Shown in pieces: positions 3,843 through 13,386 of a stretch of DNA of 64,000 nucleotides (its first letter is position 1; each line of letters opens with the position of its first letter). The stretch comes from Thermodesulfobacteriota bacterium. Its GTDB lineage: Bacteria > Desulfobacterota > Desulfarculia > JACQYL01. The stretch is taken from positions 192,001-256,000 of the forward strand of contig CAXXLZ010000001.1 in the NCBI GenBank assembly GCA_963675595.2, read 5' to 3'. The notes below the pieces were generated by a model that saw nothing but the letters and a program-made list of their open reading frames with translations, ran no database searches and had not been told where the DNA came from. A program made the translations under genes and the position numbers.

Positions 3843-5105
3843 CTAGAACTCGACGGCGAGCTGAGTGGTGAACAGATCCCGGGAATCCAATCCGTCGTCG
3901 TTATCGTCGAAGTCGCCGTGGAGATACTCGAAGGACAGGGTGGTTCCCGCGAAGAGTTCCCAGCCGAAAACGGCGCCGAAGTTGGATTCCGGATACAAGC
4001 CGAACAAATCCTTGGAACCTTCATACTTGGCGGCGATTTGGAATCGGTCGAGAAAGCCGTAACCCAGCTCGACATTCCAGGCCGCCGGTTTGGCCTCCCG
4101 ATCTTCCCCGTCCAGCACGGCGAACCCCAATTCTCCGGGCTCGAAATCGCTCAATGCGGTCACGTATTCGAGGTTCAGGCCGAAGGAAGCGTAACTCAGC
4201 GTGAAGTGTCCGGCGAGACCGGGGATGGAGTCTTCGAGGGTATCCACCGCCACCTCATCCTGCAGGGTGTCCGTATCCACCATATTGAACAGAAACCCGA
4301 CGCCCACGTTGAAGGACAGGTCTCCAAAGGAGCCTTCCGGGTTGAATACGTCGATGTTGAAAAAGAGATTGTTGATATGATCGTTTTCTTCCGTGGAAAC
4401 GTCTCCATTGAAGCCGCCGAAGGATGCATAAAGCCAATCGCCGGAATAGCCCACGGCGGCTGCGCTTTCCTGAATTTCACCGATCTCCAGGGTCAACGGG
4501 TCGGACACGAAAAAGGTCTCAAAAGGGGAAAACGGAGGATAGAAACGCCCCGCCAGGAGGAACCACGGGAAGTCGGGTGTGGCTCCCAATGTGATGGTGG
4601 CTTCATCCAGGTCCACGGGTTCCGTGTCGTCCTCCTCCCACAACAGGATCATATGGGCGTTGACGTATTTGTGAACGGCGGCGTCCAATTCGATTTGAGC
4701 GGTGGCCAAGCTGATGTCGCTGCTCTCCTCGTCTTTGGCGTTCTTCTTGGTCAGCTTCTCATATCCGGCTTCCACTTCGACCACGCCGTTGATGGAGACT
4801 CGTTCCGCGAGTTCATCGAGGATGGACCGCATATCCTTCTGGCGCCGACCCACGGACTCGAGTTCCTGCGAGATTCGTTCGTTTTCGGATCGAACCTGCT
4901 CGAACCCCGGGTGCTTCGCGGGGGCTGCTCCTTGAGCCCCTACGCCGCGGCCTTCGAGCATCTTCTCCAATTGTTGCACTCGCTCCTTCATCGTCTCCAA
5001 TTCCCGCATCAGATCGTAATTGGACATCTCCTCGGCGTAAGCCGGGAAAGAAATCAGAGACCCGCATGCGAGCATCAATACCAAAATTCGCACCAACTTC
5101 TTCAT
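3843..5105 (-). CDS. LbtU-family (iron/siderophore-associated) outer-membrane porin with N-terminal coiled coil
   Basis: Signal peptide MKKLVRILVLMLACG...AYA after GGAGGAGAG RBS; coiled coil; beta-barrel motifs (SINGVVEVEA, LWEED...LDEATI, FVSDPLTLEIGE); C-terminal QLAVEF. Confidence 0.8.
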   Translation of the reverse strand: MKKLVRILVLMLACGSLISFPAYAEEMSNYDLMRELETMKERVQQLEKMLEGRGVGAQGAAPAKHPGFEQVRSENERISQELESVGRRQKDMRSILDELAERVSINGVVEVEAGYEKLTKKNAKDEESSDISLATAQIELDAAVHKYVNAHMILLWEEDDTEPVDLDEATITLGATPDFPWFLLAGRFYPPFSPFETFFVSDPLTLEIGEIQESAAAVGYSGDWLYASFGGFNGDVSTEENDHINNLFFNIDVFNPEGSFGDLSFNVGVGFLFNMVDTDTLQDEVAVDTLEDSIPGLAGHFTLSYASFGLNLEYVTALSDFEPGELGFAVLDGEDREAKPAAWNVELGYGFLDRFQIAAKYEGSKDLFGLYPESNFGAVFGWELFAGTTLSFEYLHGDFDDNDDGLDSRDLFTTQLAVEF

Positions 5106-5237
5106 TTTACTCTCTCCTCCGTTCAAGTTTCTTCCATAGTAAATTTCGACTGTTGTTAGACTATCCTCAACACCGGTTCTGTGTTGCATCCTTTATGAAG
5201 TCGTCAGGTCCTGGTGAACCACCTCCTCTCCGGTCGG

Positions 5238-5320
5238 AAAAAAAGGCGCAAGAGGCTTCATAGGGATAGAAGCCTTCCTGCGCCTTCACTTGCCCCTCCA
5301 TGTATTGGAGCCCTTAAGAC
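5238..5320 (-). ncRNA. Candidate cis-regulatory attenuator/riboswitch-like element, copy 3 (upstream of porin)
   Basis: Minus strand TCTTAAGGG-CTCCA(atacA)TGGAG-GGGCAAGTGAAGGCGCAGG...CTTGCGCCTTTTTTT; homologous to copies at 9895 and 12072. Confidence 0.7.
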
Positions 5321-5546
5321 GATATCGATTATATAATTTAATGATGCTTATACTTCAGGTCGTATATGGATTACATATGACTTTCGGAACGACAGTTATC
5401 GCAAATTTATGCAAATATTGCTCAAGTCATGTACAGTGACATTCAAAACTCGGAAGAGTCGACTATAATACGGATAGAACCTCTTTCTCGGTTTCAATAG
5501 GTTGAATTGCGGCATACGGATGTATCCTGAGTTTTCGGCTCATACA

Positions 5547-5705
5547 CTATTCTTTGTCCTCCGAAGCGGAGGTCGGCTTGCCGCAGCAGGCTTCGCAGCC
5601 CCCACAAGCGCATGACGAGCCGCCTCTTTTCAGATTCGCGGAAAGACGTCGGTACAAATATAAGATCGCAATGGCGACAATGACGATTACAATGATGGCA
5701 TCCAC
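5547..5705 (-). CDS. FeoB-associated Cys-rich membrane protein (52 aa)
   Basis: Manual translation from GTG: MDAIIVIVIVAIAILYLYRRLSANLKRGGSSCACGGCEACCGKPTSASEDKE*; single TM helix plus CxCxxCxxCC. Too short for the ORF track. Confidence 0.85.
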   Translation of the reverse strand: MDAIIVIVIVAIAILYLYRRLSANLKRGGSSCACGGCEACCGKPTSASEDKE

Positions 5706-5915
5706 TTATCAGACCTGTCTTATCGTTATTACCCATTGATGATTTCTTGCGGCCATGTCCGAATACCTTGTCGGCCGGGAATACAAGAGTCGGAGCTTCG
5801 CTCCTTGTTTCCCGGCCGAACGGACGGCCGAGGTTGATGATGCCGACCGCCTCGTTCGTGATAGGCGATTCGTTGGTTGGGGGAGGTTCCGTGATCGGCC
5901 TCTCCGCAAGTTCTT

Positions 5916-6716
5916 CTATTTCATGTCCACGGCCTTGACCCAGATCACCGCGTCCTGGGACAGTTCCTTCCCTTTGTATTCCGTGTCGGGACCCACGCCC
6001 AGAGCGCAAAATCCCCACCATCCCGCTCTGGGAATGCCGAAGGAGAACTCACCGTTTACATTGGCTTTGATGGTCATGGTGACAAAGGCGCTTTGGGGTG
6101 CTTCCACTTGGCCTTTTTCGGCAAAGGCGTTCTTGGCCGGAAGCGGCTCGTGGTTCAGGTATTCCATTTCAATTTCGGCATAGGGCACGGGCTTGCCGTT
6201 GCTTTTGACGATCCCTCTGAAGACGTTGCCGGTCCAGAGGGCGTAAGGTTTGTCCAGAGGGACGATCTCGGCCGGTAAACCGACTTCCGTGTCCCAGTCC
6301 GTGGGAAATCCGCCGGTGTTGACCACCACTTTGGTGATTTGCTGGATATAGCTGTCTTCTTCCGATTCGAAATAGGGCGACGGAACCAGACAGAACACAT
6401 TGTCTCCCATGCCTCGCAGCCTGTAGGTGGTATCGTAGGCCGCTCCTTTATTGGACAGACCGGCCCAGGTAATGGGCCGCAACTTCTGCAGAAGGTCCTC
6501 CTTCTTTCCCTTGCGAACGACGAAGAACTGCTCGGGTTTGCCCATATCCATGGTGTGTCCCGCTTCAAAGGGGTGTGTGAAAACCAGCTTGAGGTCGATG
6601 GTTTGTGCTTTCTCCAGTGCCGCTTCCGGCGTATAAATCATCTGAAAGTGGGCGGATGCGGATCCCGTCAGGCCCATCAACATCAAACCGGTCAACATTA
6701 CGGTGAGTTTCTTCAT
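5916..6716 (-). CDS. DUF4198 (NikK/NikM-like) periplasmic metal-uptake protein
   Basis: Signal peptide ending ASA-HFQMIYTP; FTHPFE, PAEIVPLDKPY, AGWWGFCAL motifs typical of DUF4198. Confidence 0.85.
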   Translation of the reverse strand: MKKLTVMLTGLMLMGLTGSASAHFQMIYTPEAALEKAQTIDLKLVFTHPFEAGHTMDMGKPEQFFVVRKGKKEDLLQKLRPITWAGLSNKGAAYDTTYRLRGMGDNVFCLVPSPYFESEEDSYIQQITKVVVNTGGFPTDWDTEVGLPAEIVPLDKPYALWTGNVFRGIVKSNGKPVPYAEIEMEYLNHEPLPAKNAFAEKGQVEAPQSAFVTMTIKANVNGEFSFGIPRAGWWGFCALGVGPDTEYKGKELSQDAVIWVKAVDMK

Positions 6717-6836
6717 GAATGTAACTCCTTTCTCGATCCTTGTTGTTTTCCGTTTACAGACAGTTTGTTGTGTTTTCGTAAACAGTGATGTTTAGAAAGT
6801 TGATTAGGTGATTAACGATCATTTCGGAGCGATGTT

Positions 6837-7160
6837 CTACTCAAAAATATCCTTTCCGTCTGTCCTTATGATGTGCCCTTCTCCGGCATCGAAGACTACG
6901 GTGTAGTCACCGGAAGGCTTCTTGAAGGTGAATTCGCTGTCTTGATCCATTTTGCCTTTGATCAATACTTTTCCGTTGCCGTCTTCAACTCGCATCTCTA
7001 CGCCGGCGGCCGATGAACCGTCGGAGAAGCCTCCTTCGCAAGTAATTGTGGCGTCCCCATTGTCGTAGCATGAGCAAAGCGGGGTGTGGGCCGAGGCGAT
7101 TCCGGCGGACATCAGCCCAACGATTATAATTGCGATAAGAATCAGTTTCCGTTCCATCAT
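6837..7160 (-). CDS. Small secreted NikL/CbiL-like protein
   Basis: Signal peptide then HTPLCSC...GGFSDGS...FTFKKP...VFDAGEGH, resembling Ni/Co transporter L accessory subunits. Confidence 0.7.
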   Translation of the reverse strand: MMERKLILIAIIIVGLMSAGIASAHTPLCSCYDNGDATITCEGGFSDGSSAAGVEMRVEDGNGKVLIKGKMDQDSEFTFKKPSGDYTVVFDAGEGHIIRTDGKDIFE

Positions 7161-7178
7161 GAACAATCCTCCATTTTG

Positions 7179-9647
7179 TTAAACGTATCTTGGTTTATTA
7201 TTGATCAATCCCATCAGGATAGTGAATCCCACCGCCAAACCATAGAAGGCGAACATGGCCTGCAGACCGGACAGGCCCAAGGCTCTTCCGCCGGAGAAGA
7301 CCACGGTCGCAGCCAGCAGCCCCAGCACCATGGGGTAGGCCATGGAGAACAGCATCCATTTGGTGGACCCGGCCTGTAGTTTGACCGTGATGGCGGTTGC
7401 AACGCAGGGAGGATAGAGCACCATAAACAACATCAACGCCAGGGCGTGCAGAGGTGTGAAATCCGTCTCCCCCTCGGCCATACGCTGTTCAAGGGCTTGG
7501 CCTTCCTCCTCTTGTTCGTAAAGCGCTCCCAAGGTGGCCACGCTGCTTTCCTTGGCTGCGAGGGCGCTGAGCAGCGCCACGTTGACTCGCCAGTTGAAAC
7601 CGGCCCACTGCGTAGTGGGTTCCAGCGATTTGCCCAGTCTTCCCAGAAAGCTGTTATCGATGCGCTCCTTGCGCATTTCCCTGAGGAGCCCTTTGCGCTC
7701 TTTGAGCAGAGCCTTGAAGGCTCGATTGACCTTTCGCGCGACCTTGTCCTTGCCGGGTCGGACAATGCCGAAGAAGAGCGGATTCCGCGTTTCGAACCGA
7801 TCATTGACCTCTTCCATGGCCTCCCGGCTTCGGACTCCCATTTGGGCGTCTTTGTACTGGTCCTGGAAAAGAGCTAGTTCCATGAGATTTCCGGGACCCA
7901 GTTTCTCCGCATAGGAGGTGTTTCCGATTTCGTCGAAAAAGGTGTTGAGGACCCTGTCTTTCTCCTGATGGTAATGGACCATCCGTTCGTTGCCGATTCC
8001 CGGAAACTGAAGGAGAACGAAGATGACTACGGCCACGGCGGCCACGATGGTGGTGATCTTCCTCATGAACAGCCACACACGCTCGGCCGCCCTTCCGAGA
8101 ATTCCACGAATCGTCGGCAGGTGATAGGGCGGCATTTCCATGACGAAAGGGGCCGTTTCCTTGTTCTTGAGGACCGTCATGGTCAGTATTTTGGCCACGG
8201 GAAGCACGAAAAAGAGACTGATGGTGGAGATGAAAAACATGGCCCAGGCCTTGTGGGCCGCGAAGTAGATGTTCACCAAAAGGACATACAGCGGCACCTT
8301 GGCCAAACAATTGAGCATGGGAATGATCAGGATGGTGGCCAGCCTGGATCGTTCGTCGGGGATGCCTTTACACGACATCACCCCGGGGACGGCGCAACCG
8401 CCGACATAGATTCCGCCCAGAACCATGGGTAGGGTGGACTGCCCGTGCAGACCGAAACGGTTGAAGATTCTGTCCATCATGAAGGCCATGCGCGGCATGT
8501 AGCCGCTGTCTTCCAGGATGGCGATGAGGCCGAACAGGATGAAGAAGATGGGGATGTAGTTCAGCAAGGCGTTGATGCTGTCCATGAACCAGAGAGCAAA
8601 AGAACGGAGCAGGGGCACTTCGATGAAGCCCGGATCGGGTGTCAGCGACTCCACAAGGCTCCTCAGTTTTGCCAAGTAGGGCCAAGTGTAATTGGTGAGG
8701 TTGTACCCCTGAACCACCGAGAGGTAATAAAGGAGCCAGATGACGCCCACCATGATCAGGGGTCCCAGGATGCGGTGGCACACAAAACGATCGATTTTGT
8801 CGGAAAGAGGGGTCTTCCTCGCCCCTGTGGGTTTGATGCACGATTTGGCGATGTCGTCCGCCGCACGATATCTCCGGTTGGCTATATACAGTTCCGGCAT
8901 CTCGCCGTATCGGGCTTCGAAATCCGCCCTCATCTTATCCACGAATGCCGGAAGGGATTCGGCGTCCGAACAGTTTTCTTCAATCAGCCGTCGGGCTTCA
9001 CGGTCGCCTTCCATGAGTTTGATGGCCATCCATCGAAGGGGATAGTCCGTTGTCGGGAAGGTCAGCGTGGAGAGCCTGTCCACGATGTCACGAAAGAAGG
9101 GTTCCATTTCGCCGTAGTCGATGTTGGCCGCCTTGGTCGTAGTCGTCGCCTCGGAAACGGCTGTAATGGCATCCAGCAGTTCTTTCTTGCCTCGACCGCT
9201 CTTCATGGTGGTGGGGACGACATGGATGCCCAACATTTTGGAAAGCGCCCCTACGTTGATGTCGACTCCGCGTTTTTCCGCGACATCCATCATGTTCAGG
9301 TCCAGAATCACCGGGATGTCCATTTCCAGCAGTTGGAACGTAAGATACAGGCTTCGTTTCAGATTGGAGGCATCCATGACGTTGACGGCCACGGAGGGCT
9401 TTTCGTGCAGGATGAAATCCCGTGAAACGCGCTCCTCGGGCGAGTAGGAAGTGAGGCTGTAGGTGCCGGGCAGGTCGACCACTTCGATCTTGGCGCCGTT
9501 GTGCCTGTACCGGCCGACCATCTTGTCGACGGTGACGCCGGGATAGTTGGCCACGTGCTGGCTCGCACCGGTAAGTGAGTTGAACACGGTGGATTTGCCG
9601 CTGTTGGGTTGGCCGGCAAGGGCCACCAAGCATCTTTGAGCTTTCAC
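7179..9647 (-). CDS. feoB: Ferrous iron transport protein B
   Basis: G1 GQPNSGKS, G2 NYPGVTVD, G3 DLPGTYSL, G4 NMMD; ILEDSGYMPR gate; LYPPC motif. Confidence 0.97.
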   Translation of the reverse strand: MKAQRCLVALAGQPNSGKSTVFNSLTGASQHVANYPGVTVDKMVGRYRHNGAKIEVVDLPGTYSLTSYSPEERVSRDFILHEKPSVAVNVMDASNLKRSLYLTFQLLEMDIPVILDLNMMDVAEKRGVDINVGALSKMLGIHVVPTTMKSGRGKKELLDAITAVSEATTTTKAANIDYGEMEPFFRDIVDRLSTLTFPTTDYPLRWMAIKLMEGDREARRLIEENCSDAESLPAFVDKMRADFEARYGEMPELYIANRRYRAADDIAKSCIKPTGARKTPLSDKIDRFVCHRILGPLIMVGVIWLLYYLSVVQGYNLTNYTWPYLAKLRSLVESLTPDPGFIEVPLLRSFALWFMDSINALLNYIPIFFILFGLIAILEDSGYMPRMAFMMDRIFNRFGLHGQSTLPMVLGGIYVGGCAVPGVMSCKGIPDERSRLATILIIPMLNCLAKVPLYVLLVNIYFAAHKAWAMFFISTISLFFVLPVAKILTMTVLKNKETAPFVMEMPPYHLPTIRGILGRAAERVWLFMRKITTIVAAVAVVIFVLLQFPGIGNERMVHYHQEKDRVLNTFFDEIGNTSYAEKLGPGNLMELALFQDQYKDAQMGVRSREAMEEVNDRFETRNPLFFGIVRPGKDKVARKVNRAFKALLKERKGLLREMRKERIDNSFLGRLGKSLEPTTQWAGFNWRVNVALLSALAAKESSVATLGALYEQEEEGQALEQRMAEGETDFTPLHALALMLFMVLYPPCVATAITVKLQAGSTKWMLFSMAYPMVLGLLAATVVFSGGRALGLSGLQAMFAFYGLAVGFTILMGLINNKPRYV

Positions 9648-9868
9648 GAGAGTTCCACCTCTACGAACCGGGCTTCGTTGTGCCTCAGAGTCACGAAGTA
9701 TCCCTCCAACTCCACTTCCATGGGGTCTTCAAGAGGGGCGTTCCGAATGACTTTGAGTTTCAATCCCGGATATACGCCCATATCCAGAAGCCGTTGGCAT
9801 AACCTGTCGCGGACCGCCAGCCTCTTGATGAGGCATTCCGTGCCCGGTCCCATTTGATCCAGCGTCAT
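9644..9868 (-). CDS. feoA: Ferrous iron transport protein A
   Basis: MTLDQM...QRLLDMGVYPG...IRNAPLEDPMEV...LRHNEA; its stop overlaps the feoB GTG. The ORF-track 5' extension runs through the leader element and is probably not translated. Confidence 0.95.
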   Translation of the reverse strand: MTLDQMGPGTECLIKRLAVRDRLCQRLLDMGVYPGLKLKVIRNAPLEDPMEVELEGYFVTLRHNEARFVEVELS

Positions 9869-9894
9869 GGCTCGATTTCCTTTCCCTGTCGGAG

Positions 9895-9984
9895 AAAAAC
9901 AAAAGGCGTAACCGGGCGCGCACGACGCGCCTGAGATTACGCCTTCACTTCCTTCGCACCGATGGACGGTCGAAGGCCGTAAGA
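9895..9984 (-). ncRNA. Candidate cis-regulatory attenuator/riboswitch-like element, copy 1 (feoA leader)
   Basis: TCTTACGG-CCTTCG(accg..cggt)gCGAAGG-AAGTGAAGGCGTAA...TTACGCCTTTTGTTTTT, lying between a sigma70-like promoter and the feoA RBS. Confidence 0.75.
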
Positions 9985-9997
9985 GCAATCTTGCTTG

Positions 9998-10013
9998 CTT
10001 AGATACTTCTATC
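9998..10013. promoter_or_regulatory. Putative DtxR/SirR-type operator (GTTAG-N6-CTAAC-like)
   Basis: CTTAG-ATACTT-CTATC just downstream of the predicted feoA promoter. Confidence 0.45.
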
Positions 10014-10029
10014 TGGTAGAGACGCCCCT

Positions 10030-10057
10030 AATTTACAGACCGGCTTCTTCTTGTCAA
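10030..10057 (-). promoter_or_regulatory. sigma70-like promoter for the feoAB operon
   Basis: Minus strand TTGACA-N16-TAAATT. Confidence 0.55.
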
Positions 10058-10085
10058 GATATTTCTGAATGACCCTGAACGTGAC

Positions 10086-10343
10086 TCAACGTTCTTCGCT
10101 GTCCTCCCCACTTTCCGCTTTCAGACGAGAGGCCGACACACGACGGAAGAGATTCCGAGCCGATCCGTCGCCGATCATCGTTCGTCCGATGCAGCTTTCC
10201 AGGCAAAGCCGCCTCAGACACTGTTTGGACCTTATATCGAGACAGCGGAAATCCGCCGCGCATACGCGACCTTCCAAAAGGAGCCGAACCACCGTTTCTT
10301 CGGCGATTTCAACGCGGACGCTCTTTCCGGACGCGGCGTGCAT
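10086..10343 (-). CDS. Small Cys-rich hypothetical protein (VCAADFRCLD...CLRRLCLESC)
   Basis: C-terminal 85 aa of track ORF 10086..10556, read from ATG 10343; fits without overlap after the 10370 gene; five clustered Cys. Confidence 0.65.
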   Translation of the reverse strand: MHAASGKSVRVEIAEETVVRLLLEGRVCAADFRCLDIRSKQCLRRLCLESCIGRTMIGDGSARNLFRRVSASRLKAESGEDSEER

Positions 10344-10369
10344 GAAGGACTCAACAGAGCGGATAGGGC

Positions 10370-10735
10370 TCAATTCCGCCGCTTTTTGTCCGAGCAAGGG
10401 CAATTCACACAATTCCCATTGCACCGGCACGGCTCTTTCGGGGGCACGATGACCTTGCTGCCTCTGAGTGCGATTTCGTACCCTTTTTCGCCTTTGAAGA
10501 AGAGCCGATCCGCCGGCAGTCTGTTTTTGTCCAGGTTCCGCCGAAAGGTGCTGCATCCGAAGGGGTCCATTTCTCGAAGGCTGTGGGTGTCTGTAAAGAC
10601 TCGCCCCGTCCCGTCATATTGTTCATGAAGCAGGTTGATCAACTCGCATGCCGAGGTTCCGTCGAAGTCTCCTCTTGTGCTTACGTGCAGGTTCCCGTTG
10701 CTCTTTTTAAATGCGACTCTGAAGTTGGCGCTCAT
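10370..10735 (-). CDS. STAS-like small protein with Cys-rich tail
   Basis: GNLHVSTRGDFDGTSACELINLL resembles an anti-anti-sigma STAS N-terminus; tail CRCNGNCVNCPC; GGAGGAAAAGG RBS. Confidence 0.7.
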   Translation of the reverse strand: MSANFRVAFKKSNGNLHVSTRGDFDGTSACELINLLHEQYDGTGRVFTDTHSLREMDPFGCSTFRRNLDKNRLPADRLFFKGEKGYEIALRGSKVIVPPKEPCRCNGNCVNCPCSDKKRRN

Positions 10736-10785
10736 CCTTTTCCTCCGAAACGTCTTTCCGTGATGGATCAGTGGAGACTATCGGC

Positions 10786-12024
10786 CTATGTATTCATATC
10801 CGAAATGGCCTTGGAAACAGCCGTAAGGCTCGAGTTGGCCAGCATATGAACCGGCTTTCGATGCTTCTTTCCAAGATTCTTCACTACGGAGCAGGCCGCG
10901 TGACTGTTACAGTTGATTGGACAGAGGACAATATCGGCTCGTTTCAGACGAACCTCCAGACTCTTGGAGCCGCTTCTCATGTAACCATCGTGATAGTCGA
11001 ACACGCCCCCGTTGTTTTCGATAATATCTCGATAACGGGATTCCATCTTGGTGATTCCTCCTACGATCAAGATTCGCTTCTTGCAGAGATCGAAAGAAGG
11101 GCAACTCTCATCACAACGTTTCATATTTGCAAGTTGCACCATCTTATCCCGATTCTCCCCCACCAGACGGAGGTTCGCTTGGCTCAGACGTTCAACTTCG
11201 GAGGCGAACGCCTCGTTCTTGCTCATGAGCGAATCGATCCGGAGTTGTTGCTTTCGGCAGGTTTCCTCCCACATGGCGACTTCTTCCCTAAGCCTCGCAT
11301 TCTCCCCCTCGATTCGCGAGAGTTCCCTTCGATCGGCTCTCCCGGCGATTTGTTCCTCCTGTCGAACCAGGTTCTTTTCAGCGGAACCCAGACTAGCGGC
11401 CAATTCTTTCCTATCCTTCTCCAGGTGCGCGTTTTCCTTCTGCAAAGCGCGTCTAAGCTTTGCCGCGTCTTTGAGCTCAGTTCTCATGTCTTCCAGGCGT
11501 CGGGCCCGCCTTTCCATTTCTCGGCGAAGTTTCATAACCTGGGTGCCGCTCCAATGCATGGTCATATGTATTTCTCCAAAGATTTCCTTCTTTGCTTCTT
11601 TGGACAACCTAGGGTGAATCGCAGCGGCATAGAGAATCCCCAAGTAATCTCCGGAGGCGAAAGCGGACTTCCATCGCAAAATGAAGTCCTCTTGAGAAAG
11701 TTGGAGCAGTGAGAACGCTTCTTTCCCGAAGTTGCGACTCAGGAAATTTTCCACCTTCCTCGAAAGTCGATTTTCGTCTTCCAAACTTGCGACAATCAGC
11801 TCATGGATTTCGAAAGGAGTCTTGTCTTTGAAAGAATAGCCCGCTCGTTTGAGAAACTGTTTTTGGTCCGCTAAAGGCAGGCACATGCCTACTACGGGGC
11901 ATTTGTAACAGTGTTCGATCTCCCACAGTTTCAGCGGTGTAATTCGGTTTGGTACACGATTTAGATAGGCAAGATCGCCCAATTGATCGTAGGCCTGAAC
12001 AGAAGTTTCATAATCGGTCGTCAT
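10786..12024 (-). CDS. DUF2325 domain protein with N-terminal Cys motif and long coiled coil
   Basis: KLWEI..CYKCPVVGMCL; central coiled coil; C-terminal ILIVGG...HDG...ADIVLCPINCNSHAAC..VK..GKK (DUF2325). Start is 12024 (RBS GAAAGGA) or 12048. Confidence 0.85.
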   Translation of the reverse strand: MTTDYETSVQAYDQLGDLAYLNRVPNRITPLKLWEIEHCYKCPVVGMCLPLADQKQFLKRAGYSFKDKTPFEIHELIVASLEDENRLSRKVENFLSRNFGKEAFSLLQLSQEDFILRWKSAFASGDYLGILYAAAIHPRLSKEAKKEIFGEIHMTMHWSGTQVMKLRREMERRARRLEDMRTELKDAAKLRRALQKENAHLEKDRKELAASLGSAEKNLVRQEEQIAGRADRRELSRIEGENARLREEVAMWEETCRKQQLRIDSLMSKNEAFASEVERLSQANLRLVGENRDKMVQLANMKRCDESCPSFDLCKKRILIVGGITKMESRYRDIIENNGGVFDYHDGYMRSGSKSLEVRLKRADIVLCPINCNSHAACSVVKNLGKKHRKPVHMLANSSLTAVSKAISDMNT

Positions 12025-12071
12025 TGATCCGTTCCTTTCCATGTACATAATTATTCAAATCGCCGTTTTAC

Positions 12072-12155
12072 AAAAAAAGGCGTATCTCGATCGTCGATCC
12101 ATCGAGTTACGCCTTCACTGCTTCCTCACTCATCAAGAGAGTGGGAGCCGTAAGA
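12072..12155 (-). ncRNA. Candidate cis-regulatory attenuator/riboswitch-like element, copy 2 (upstream of DUF2325 gene)
   Basis: TCTTACG-GCTCCCACTC(tcttgat)GAGTGAGGAAGC-AGTGAAGGCGTAACTCGAT...ATCGAGATACGCCTTTTTTT. Confidence 0.75.
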
Positions 12156-12170
12156 CATCCCGGGACTACA

Positions 12171-12464
12171 TCAATCTGCGTCGATCAGCGTTTGTGTAAG
12201 CTTCTTGCGCAATGCCTCAAGCGTCTTTGACTTGAAGGCCTTTCTGCTTTCCTCCAAGATTTCTATGGCTTCCTTAATTGCGATTTCCAGTTTGACTTCT
12301 CTGGACCGCTTGGGACAGAGACTCAAGAGCGCCAACAGGTCGTTTTCATCCACCCGATTCTCCAAAATGGAGGACATGAGGCGACAATGCATTTCCATGT
12401 TCTCCTGCAACTCTTGGAGATTGGAGTTGAGAGCGTCGAGAATGTCCGTTTTTTCCAAGCCCAT
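12171..12464 (-). CDS. Hypothetical helical protein (~97 aa)
   Basis: Co-oriented ORF in the iron island; helical sequence ending LEESRKAFKSKTLEALRKKL. Start 12464 preferred because 12497 overlaps the putative operator. Confidence 0.7.
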   Translation of the reverse strand: MGLEKTDILDALNSNLQELQENMEMHCRLMSSILENRVDENDLLALLSLCPKRSREVKLEIAIKEAIEILEESRKAFKSKTLEALRKKLTQTLIDAD

Positions 12465-12486
12465 AATTCTAGTCGGTCCTTTTGGT

Positions 12487-12502
12487 GTTTGAGTCATCTA
12501 AC
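12487..12502. promoter_or_regulatory. Putative DtxR/SirR-type operator
   Basis: GTTTG-AGTCAT-CTAAC, 9/10 match to the GTTAG-N6-CTAAC palindrome. Confidence 0.5.
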
Positions 12503-12840: not shown

Positions 12841-13386
12841 TCAGTCGGCCTTGATGGAATCCACCCGCTGCTTGAACTCACTTGAAAATTCCTCGGTACG
12901 TTCCATACACTTGTCGGCTCTGCGGCCGTGTCGGCGAAACTCTTCGAAATACTGGAGCCAGCTTTTCCCGGCCCGTGGACAGGTTCGGATGAACTCGACG
13001 AAATCCGTCAAACTGTCCAAAGTTTCCGGACTCAGAGTGTGCTCCATCTTACAGGCCTCGGCATCCGCCGTCTCGAAATCGATTTTCAATATCTCGGTGA
13101 GAAACTCACGAAGTATCTCATGCCTTCGCCGCATTTCCCTTCCCACATCGGCTCCGTCCCGTGTCAGTTCCACGTACTCGTATTTTTCATAATGGACCAA
13201 GCCTCGGTCGCTCAGGGTCTTGAGCATGCTGGTGACCGTGGGCATTTTGACATCCATCCGTTTGGCGATGTCCTTAACCCGAACGACTCTCTTTTCCTCA
13301 TCAAGTTCGAAAATCGCTTCCAGATAATCTTCCATGACGGAGGTCAACGGCTTTGCCGCCAGATGATTTGTCTCTTGTGCTACCAT
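12841..13386 (-). CDS. DtxR/MntR-family metal-dependent transcriptional repressor
   Basis: MEDYLEAIF...VRVKDIAKRMDVKMPTVTSMLKTL...RRHEILREFL...EACKMEH; no C-terminal FeoA domain. Confidence 0.95.
   Translation of the reverse strand: MVAQETNHLAAKPLTSVMEDYLEAIFELDEEKRVVRVKDIAKRMDVKMPTVTSMLKTLSDRGLVHYEKYEYVELTRDGADVGREMRRRHEILREFLTEILKIDFETADAEACKMEHTLSPETLDSLTDFVEFIRTCPRAGKSWLQYFEEFRRHGRRADKCMERTEEFSSEFKQRVDSIKAD

Follow-up and report, generated by a model that had tools for sequence, protein, structure and literature searches.

Why are three sets of genes in one iron-uptake island preceded by the same short leader? We addressed this question in a 64,000-nucleotide (nt) stretch of a Thermodesulfobacteriota genome of the class Desulfarculia (GenBank assembly GCA_963675595.2, contig CAXXLZ010000001.1, positions 192,001 to 256,000), hereafter the window. 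A preliminary description had reported three minus-strand copies of an unrecognised structured RNA there and proposed that they form a termination switch gating iron uptake. The sequence bears out all three copies, which we call elements A, B, and C. We consider it very likely that they belong to a new family of cis-acting transcription attenuators serving an iron-starvation regulon of Desulfobacterota. Their extents were set with covariance models and are listed below in window coordinates; R1 denotes the model built from five copies and R3 a model of the aptamer only.

5233-5321, minus strand: element A, leader of the LbtU-family siderophore porin gene (R1 71.1 bits; R3 41.1 bits); aptamer 5280-5321, terminator ~5238-5285
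9893-9986, minus strand: element B, feoA-feoB leader (R1 83.7 bits, E 4.5e-18; R3 53.5 bits); aptamer/antiterminator 9939-9986, terminator hairpin 9904-9944, U-tract down to 9893
12067-12157, minus strand: element C, intercistronic leader between the gene of SP2, a helical protein of ~100 amino acids (aa), and a long DUF2325 gene (R1 80.8 bits; R3 47.0 bits); aptamer 12109-12157, terminator ~12071-12115

Each ~90-nt element combines an intrinsic terminator with a structure made up of a helix under strict conservation (P1), a GG/AA internal loop, and a hairpin whose pairs covary (P2); the RNA core is only ~47 nt long. The shared blocks TCTTAMGG, AGTGAAGGCGYA, and TRCGCC followed by a T-run, the variable inner hairpin, and the pyrimidine/purine covariation of the terminator, all listed in the preliminary description, are visible in our alignments. 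Element A carries the variant CUUAAGG, with A in place of C8. Compared to shuffled sequences, the window copies fold with z-scores of -3.3 to -5.4; for element B, the fold reaches -46.9 kcal/mol (z -5.36). All three exact occurrences of the 10-mer AGTGAAGGCG in the window fall in the elements, and the two-block pattern has four matches in the 6.8-Mb genome, all on one strand, vs. none for a reversed control. Searching the genome with R1 returned five copies at E <= 6e-9 (next match E 0.53), and R3 returned the same five with no other match at E <= 1. Outside the window lie two more copies, one ahead of an HD-GYP gene and the other ahead of the gene of a secreted 250-aa protein. In other genomes, covariance-model searches and an exact-pattern scan brought the family to more than 115 distinct copies.

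No Rfam 15 family reached its gathering threshold anywhere in the window, including NiCo/czcD, yybP-ykoY, and M-box. Between positions 4800 and 12600, five noise matches appeared at E <= 10, and the only one touching an element was Plastid-psbA-2 on the terminator of element A (23.5 bits vs. a gathering score of 55.8). At 15 loci of other genomes, Rfam gave six matches, none at an element (group II introns, HEARO RNA). A literature search found no description of the motif; it did not cover supplements, so a supplement-only listing could be missed. The absence of any Rfam family at threshold, together with covariation of P2 and the terminator, upholds the earlier label of an unrecognised structured RNA.

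Competing folds of the leader

Pairing in P2 has been preserved while its sequence changed. All six pairs vary on both sides, 93-96% of cells are paired, and the covariation score was reached by 0 of 500 shuffles. In one of the covariation tests, 93.2% of P2 cells were paired, as would be expected of the structured aptamer of a riboswitch. The lower terminator stem covaries as well, with pair 54-105 found as CG 7 times, UA 7 times, and UG 3 times. Its G+C-rich stem is followed directly by the U-tract, the arrangement of an intrinsic terminator, and a few copies (loci L060, L062, L066, L068, and L065) contain a terminator mismatch or a broken U-tract. The two strands of P2 differ in composition: the 5' strand is ~93% pyrimidine and the 3' strand is purine-rich, often GGAG- or GAAG-like, an asymmetry that pairing alone does not explain.

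The terminator competes with a second structure that we call extended P1. Here, the 5' block YGYCUUAC pairs with GUG(A)AGGCG through C8-G, A7-U, U6-G, a bulged A, U5-A, C4-G, Y3-G, G2-C, and often N1-G. This helix sequesters AGGCG, the base of the terminator's 5' strand. When nascent RNAs were folded only to the terminator 5' strand, extended P1 formed in 93 of 106. Positions 1-3, which lie outside the scan pattern, can pair with GCG in 83, 93, and 101 of the 106 copies. If extended P1 is forced, the leftover hairpin is separated from the U-tract; this antiterminator-constrained fold lies 6.0 +/- 1.7 kcal/mol above the minimum free energy fold, which is the terminator (n = 116).

Two independent triple compensations, each in a divergent copy, support this competitor. 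In genome G125 (G and L numbers denote our genomes and loci), the shared strand carries A69>G, and both of its partners have changed to suit, the 5' block by U5>C and the 3' strand by U>C. In G226, the shared-strand change is G70>A, and the compensating changes are C4>U for the 5' block and C>U for the 3' strand. The nascent folds and the energy gap thus sustain the proposal of a termination switch with mutually exclusive folds, and the expression platform overlaps the aptamer, as in riboswitches. A hairpin overlapping the 5' strand of a terminator is also the geometry of protein-mediated antitermination, and binding of a protein is predicted here.

By contrast, two details of the preliminary description were not supported as stated. 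Its antiterminator, in which UUACGG and the P2 5' strand pair with GAAGGCGUAA, is not general. This pairing is strong in the feoA copy, at -11.3 kcal/mol, but just 61 of 115 copies reach -6 kcal/mol, and the mean of -6.07 is barely better than the -5.19 of shuffled sequences. A7 is invariant, yet the base it was proposed to pair with is C in 36 of 115 copies. The two conserved blocks had also been read as direct repeats providing twin sites for a dimeric protein. They are instead the two strands of one helix, the extended P1 that forms the conserved competitor. A mini open reading frame (ORF), GUG AAG GCG UAA, was considered and rejected because its UAA is gone whenever position 54 is C.

Distribution and regulon

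The element is widespread, with nearly all of the matches listed in a scan of one genome per species falling within Desulfobacterota. Among 95 genomes of the window's class, R1 gave 17 accepted elements in six genomes. Weak matches at L051-L053 (G018, G032, and G061) are plain terminators without the 5' blocks, leaving six of nine matched class genomes. In an even sample of the phylum, 6 of 151 genomes carry the element, and R3 gives the same 13 hits. An exact-pattern scan of one genome per species returned at least 114 stretches, on which a further model, R2, aligned 108 matches (106 distinct); adding the earlier copies brings the total set to 117 distinct sequences. Carriers among the matches listed belong to Desulfobacterales, Desulfosarcina, Desulfonema, Desulfatiglandales, Desulfarculia, Syntrophaceae, and Thermodesulfobacteriota, and those outside Desulfobacterota are two Acidobacteriota and one WOR-3 metagenome-assembled genomes. 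Cultured carriers include Desulfosarcina variabilis, D. alkanivorans, Desulfonema limicola, and Desulfobotulus alkaliphilus. One exact pattern match proved to be a ferredoxin coding sequence rather than an element, and a one-mismatch search was discarded with matches at control level.

All R3 copies bear terminators: variants lacking one, or the same aptamer joined to a different expression platform, were not found in the window's own genome (5 copies), the 151 phylum genomes (13 hits in 6 genomes), or 22 further genomes. In the divergent G226 copy, the terminator is degenerate and lacks a U-tract. Two genomes belonging to one class (L068:1400-1500, minus strand; L200:1040-1100, plus strand) have a degenerate second element in tandem behind the first, ahead of a DUF2325 gene. 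At L115:2921-3538 (minus strand), a group II intron lies between the element and the DUF2325 gene, and a second intron copy sits on the opposite strand of the locus. A HEARO RNA (IS605/OMEGA-type element) is found a few kb from an element at L094:5307-5538 (minus strand).

To describe what the elements precede, we clustered same-strand ORFs within 2.5 kb of each element and named one representative per cluster with Pfam and NCBIfam; 111 elements had such ORFs. A recurrent gene family starts within 450 nt for 95 of them and for 16 there is none. FeoA and FeoB dominate (34 of 111 elements each), followed by HD-GYP and/or STAS domains (18), long DUF2325 proteins (16), LbtU-type porins (14), TonB receptors (9), Nitro_FeMo-Co small proteins (7), and flavodoxin, P-type ATPase, and short DUF2325 proteins (3 each). 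Slp, OprB, and MetA-type outer-membrane proteins and a radical SAM protein were also seen. The association with iron genes proposed for the window copies therefore holds across more than 100 copies, and this gene set is, judging from its predicted functions, an iron-starvation regulon. FeoA starts a median of 22 nt past the element (24 nt from element B to the feoA ATG), so transcription of feoA must cross the terminator.

Many copies also lie behind a recognizable promoter. The -35-like hexamer noted earlier ahead of the feoA copy is present 71 nt upstream of element B, and 54 of 116 upstream regions contain TTGAC[AT], usually between -72 and -63 and in a few cases at 34 nt. An operator-like palindrome, TAG-N6-CTA, occurs in 41 of 116 upstream regions vs. 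2.9 expected from shuffles, at fixed offsets of -44/-45 and -26. The same palindrome stands ahead of the SP2 gene in 12 of 23 of its upstream regions. These boxes agree with the earlier suggestion that the leader acts behind a control at the DNA level. Another example of the palindrome lies at L200:825-845, and in G252 it reads like a DtxR/IdeR iron box, directly behind a DtxR-FeoA fusion gene. The promoter features and genes of the island are listed below; the labels FeoA/FeoB, DUF2325, and LbtU porin given previously were all confirmed.

10052-10057, minus strand: TTGACA, -35-like hexamer, 71 nt upstream of element B
10000-10011, minus strand: TAG-N6-CTA palindrome, operator-like, ~26 nt upstream of element B
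12841-13386, minus strand: gene of an iron-dependent repressor of the DtxR family, heading the island (Pfam Fe_dep_repress, Fe_dep_repr_C)
12171-12497, minus strand: SP2 gene, ~100-aa all-helical protein, candidate trans-acting partner, adjoining element C
10786-12048, minus strand: long DUF2325 gene (Pfam DUF2325 5e-26) whose product has an N-domain that contains Cys, a coiled coil, and DUF2325 at its C-terminus
10370-10735, minus strand: small STAS-fold protein with a Cys-rich tail (AlphaFold predicted local distance difference test score 85.9; Foldseek SpoIIAA, RsbS, RsbV, E ~1e-4)
9644-9868, minus strand: feoA (Pfam FeoA 6.4e-18)
7179-9647, minus strand: feoB (Pfam FeoB_N 6.3e-63, plus Gate and FeoB_C)
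3843-5105, minus strand: LbtU-family siderophore porin gene (NCBIfam NF033652, 261.4 bits vs. a cut-off of 90)

Several neighbors of the elements have features of their own. The tail of the STAS-fold protein reads CRCxGNCxxCxC; its gene follows DUF2325 or HD-GYP genes as an operon partner, and at two loci (L135:4097-5197 and L071:5937-7022) the protein is fused to the HD-GYP C-terminus, which suggests an iron-linked signalling module of HD-GYP, STAS, and DUF2325. A 156-aa ORF at 10086-10556 (minus strand) overlaps the STAS gene in another frame, has no homologue in the 95 related genomes, and is probably not a gene. The feoAB operon runs on at 5494-7166 (minus strand) into genes for a DUF4198 protein, a NikL-like energy-coupling factor (ECF)-type membrane protein (a weak match, 58.7 bits, under the cut-off of 100), and a 175-aa protein with no family assignment, which may form a second metal-uptake unit. 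Elsewhere, a conserved gene of ~273 aa ending in ...GKELSQDAVIWVQALD lies 25-40 nt upstream of elements that precede LbtU-type porins (L138, L147, L097:830-1651, L079:3625-4446, and L072:3004-3825).

A candidate partner protein and rival explanations

The distribution of one small protein, SP2, closely follows that of the element. SP2 is found in all six element-bearing genomes of the class and in no other of the 95. In the phylum sample, it is present in five of the six element-bearing genomes (the sixth is G098) and in 2 of the 145 genomes not counted as element-bearing, G226 and G233. G226 has the divergent element 18 nt past its SP2 gene, and the match in G233 is partial and inside a longer ORF. 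Among 22 genomes of a second class, four have strong element hits, and three of these encode SP2 (the fourth is G252); SP2 is absent from all 17 genomes that gave no element hit and from one more genome whose hit is weak (27 bits). Overall, 12 of 14 element-bearing genomes and 2 of ~245 others encode SP2, the pattern expected of a co-inherited regulator. In G125, the SP2 gene and the element both look decayed.

The two can also be physically close. The SP2 stop codon lies 6-34 nt (mode 12) ahead of 27 of the 117 elements, and in the window element C begins 13 nt past it, directly behind the codons of a highly conserved, basic C-terminal helix. The annotated SP2 ATG overlaps operator-like sequence, and the true start is therefore probably an internal Met at ~12464, ~11 codons in. 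The nearest Atlas clusters to SP2 are annotated as "hypothetical protein" of Thermodesulfobacteriota. Two other proteins were considered as obligatory partners and rejected. The STAS-fold Cys-rich protein is present in all six element-bearing class genomes but also in three without an element, and it is absent from the element-bearing G107, G125, and G182. DUF2325 occurs in 28 of 95 class genomes, mostly without an element, and is missing from G001, G125, G230, and G098.

These observations can be assembled into a mechanism. The element would be transcribed from an operator-bearing promoter or by read-in from an upstream gene, and the nascent RNA would first fold into a long irregular hairpin comprising extended P1 with its one bulged A, the GG/AA internal loop, and P2. 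By holding the AGGCG of the terminator base, this hairpin would act as an antiterminator. Because the terminator fold is predicted to win at equilibrium by ~6 kcal/mol, some factor would have to hold the antiterminator before transcription could run on into the feoAB, porin, receptor, flavodoxin, and DUF2325/HD-GYP genes. This factor would probably recognise the invariant UUACGG/AAGUGAA core, and SP2, with its basic C-terminal helix, would be the most likely holder. Since the SP2 gene often stands behind the same palindromic operator, the circuit could be feed-forward: low iron would lift the repressor, SP2 would accumulate, and elongation through the leaders would be licensed. We infer that SP2 binds RNA, in which direction it acts, and that iron is the signal. 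The most likely version of the attenuator, about which our confidence is evenly balanced, would accordingly be a protein-dependent one operated by SP2.

Several results weigh against this interpretation. P1 is conserved in sequence, with only one or two compensations and almost no covariation. Since most copies were collected by the exact-pattern scan, part of the invariance in the pattern columns is built in. G252 (93% complete) has an intact element beside only a C-terminal SP2 remnant, G098 (66% complete) has two elements and no detected SP2 gene, and in G014 no element separates the SP2 gene from the DUF2325 gene that comes directly after it. The co-occurrence amounts to ~9 family-level lineages, within which related genomes are not independent, and SP2 may have been inherited with the element from one ancestral cassette (gene then element) without any binding. 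SP2 itself resembles nothing that would identify it as an RNA-binding protein: Pfam searches of 25 members gave scattered weak matches with no consistent family and no CAT/PRD or ANTAR domain, a profile search of the PDB reached E 0.89 at best, and Foldseek returned no structural analogue at E < 8 for a structure model whose predicted template modelling score was just 0.35.

The element could instead be a true riboswitch, in which the UUACGG/AAGUGAA core, the GG/AA loop, and the bulged A bind a small ligand directly, with no protein involved. As the ligand, Fe(II) or a different metal could favour the terminator, or else a low-iron metabolite could favour the antiterminator. A compact invariant aptamer that abuts an overlapping expression platform, a terminator bias of a typical 6 kcal/mol, and a coherent regulon centred on iron transport are all in line with this, as are the elements lacking an intact SP2 gene in G252 and G098, and conserved guanines near the internal loop could coordinate a metal. 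However, near-perfect co-inheritance with one small protein family is unexpected for a protein-free sensor, R3 uncovered no alternative expression platform in the genomes searched, and the promoters already have an operator-like box. Moreover, uptake genes would need an OFF switch, but the conserved structure is an antiterminator. We regard a protein-free riboswitch as a serious but rather unlikely explanation; given the co-inherited small protein, protein-dependent control is at least as likely as a metal ligand.

Two further explanations dispense with a dedicated sensor or with regulation of the adjacent gene, and we find both very improbable. If the element were a small regulatory RNA gene analogous to RyhB/PrrF, the terminated ~90-nt transcript would act in trans at low iron and read-through would be incidental. 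Five copies per genome, strong terminators with U-tails, conservation in sequence and not in pairing alone, and the 54 of 116 copies with a promoter-like hexamer at a fixed distance, along with the operator-like palindrome, are what such a gene would display. Yet 95 of 111 elements have a recurrent same-strand gene family close downstream, the short distance to FeoA leaves no space for a second promoter, 27 of 117 copies start a few bases past a stop codon without a promoter of their own, and the two conserved blocks pair with one another instead of forming single-stranded seeds. Alternatively, the element could be a leaky terminator or insulator that works constitutively, or its attenuation could be set by a ribosome finishing the upstream ~100-aa ORF. 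This would account for the terminator fold being the minimum free energy state in the folded copies and for the tight stop-to-element spacing (mode 12 nt, 27 copies). A leaky terminator needs no invariant upstream aptamer, however, and R3 finds one with E down to 1e-12; about three-quarters of the copies lack an upstream ORF for a ribosome to finish, and the triple compensations keep the alternative fold under either version.

Known systems and significance for iron biology

Dual control of metal transport by a metalloregulator and a leader RNA is known from MntR and the yybP-ykoY riboswitch. The elements resemble that arrangement in joining a promoter operator to a leader RNA switch on the same metal-transport genes; they differ in that the yybP-ykoY Rfam family does not match them and in that the second layer here may be a protein-RNA pair. 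Like the targets of the BglG/LicT-ribonucleic antiterminator (RAT) and ANTAR (EutV, AmiR, NasR) systems, the element has a hairpin that overlaps, on its 3' side, with the 5' strand of an intrinsic terminator; a candidate binding-protein gene beside a target and several targets per genome are further points in common. SP2, by contrast, has no CAT/PRD or ANTAR domain. The targets of ANTAR proteins are two hexaloop hairpins, whereas the element is one hairpin with a GG/AA loop, a comparison made with the motif as generally known and with Rfam only.

An analogy can also be drawn with the iron-responsive element (IRE) bound by apo-aconitase (iron regulatory protein, IRP), where iron genes are controlled after initiation by a hairpin that a protein binds at low iron, as would be the case here. 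The element even has an AGUG-containing conserved block. In the IRE, CAGUGN forms the apical loop above a bulged C, and control is on translation or stability. Compared to this general description of the IRE, the AAGUGA of the element is a helix strand, and its control would be on termination.

The czcD (NiCo) riboswitch folds as a four-way junction and switches efflux genes ON when metal is high (also in the accessible text of PMC11672702). The element, by contrast, has no Rfam match and is a single irregular hairpin before uptake and iron-sparing genes. The two are alike in being leader RNAs linked to transition-metal homeostasis that act on transcription elongation, as far as the accessible text of PMC9389577 and PMC11672702 describes czcD, and the former re-reads czcD as an Fe(II)-responsive riboswitch. 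In its accessible portion, the 2024 review (PMC11672702) covers metal-sensing leaders for Li, Na, Mg, Ca, and the Ni/Co-or-Fe(II) czcD class, and it treats the last as easing iron toxicity, not as control of uptake.

Bacterial iron acquisition is taught as controlled by repressors, such as Fur and DtxR, and by trans-acting small RNAs. A leader-based layer would be set over nearly the same genes. From DNA Fur boxes, Rodionov et al. 2004 (PMC545781) predicted a Fur regulon for Desulfovibrio and Geobacter whose genes, in the accessible part of that paper, are near-identical to ours: feoAB, flavodoxin, an HD-domain protein, a P-type ATPase, an AraC-type regulator, and OprB-type porins. That part of the paper describes DNA Fur boxes and no iron-gene leader RNA, and the dFUR box given there differs from the TAG-N6-CTA palindrome of the elements.

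We lean towards the view that the family is the first RNA switch acting on iron uptake rather than efflux, whether as a protein-free riboswitch for Fe(II) or a low-iron metabolite or as the target of a new class of small helical antiterminator. Of these two versions, the new class of RNA-binding antiterminator protein, as predicted from the genomes, fits better. If this is true, sulfate reducers, alkane degraders, and syntrophs, a large and environmentally important group, would have an elongation checkpoint ahead of feoAB, siderophore porins, TonB receptors, and flavodoxin. It would also provide a function for two orphan families, SP2 and the DUF2325/HD-GYP/STAS module that is the second commonest target of the elements.

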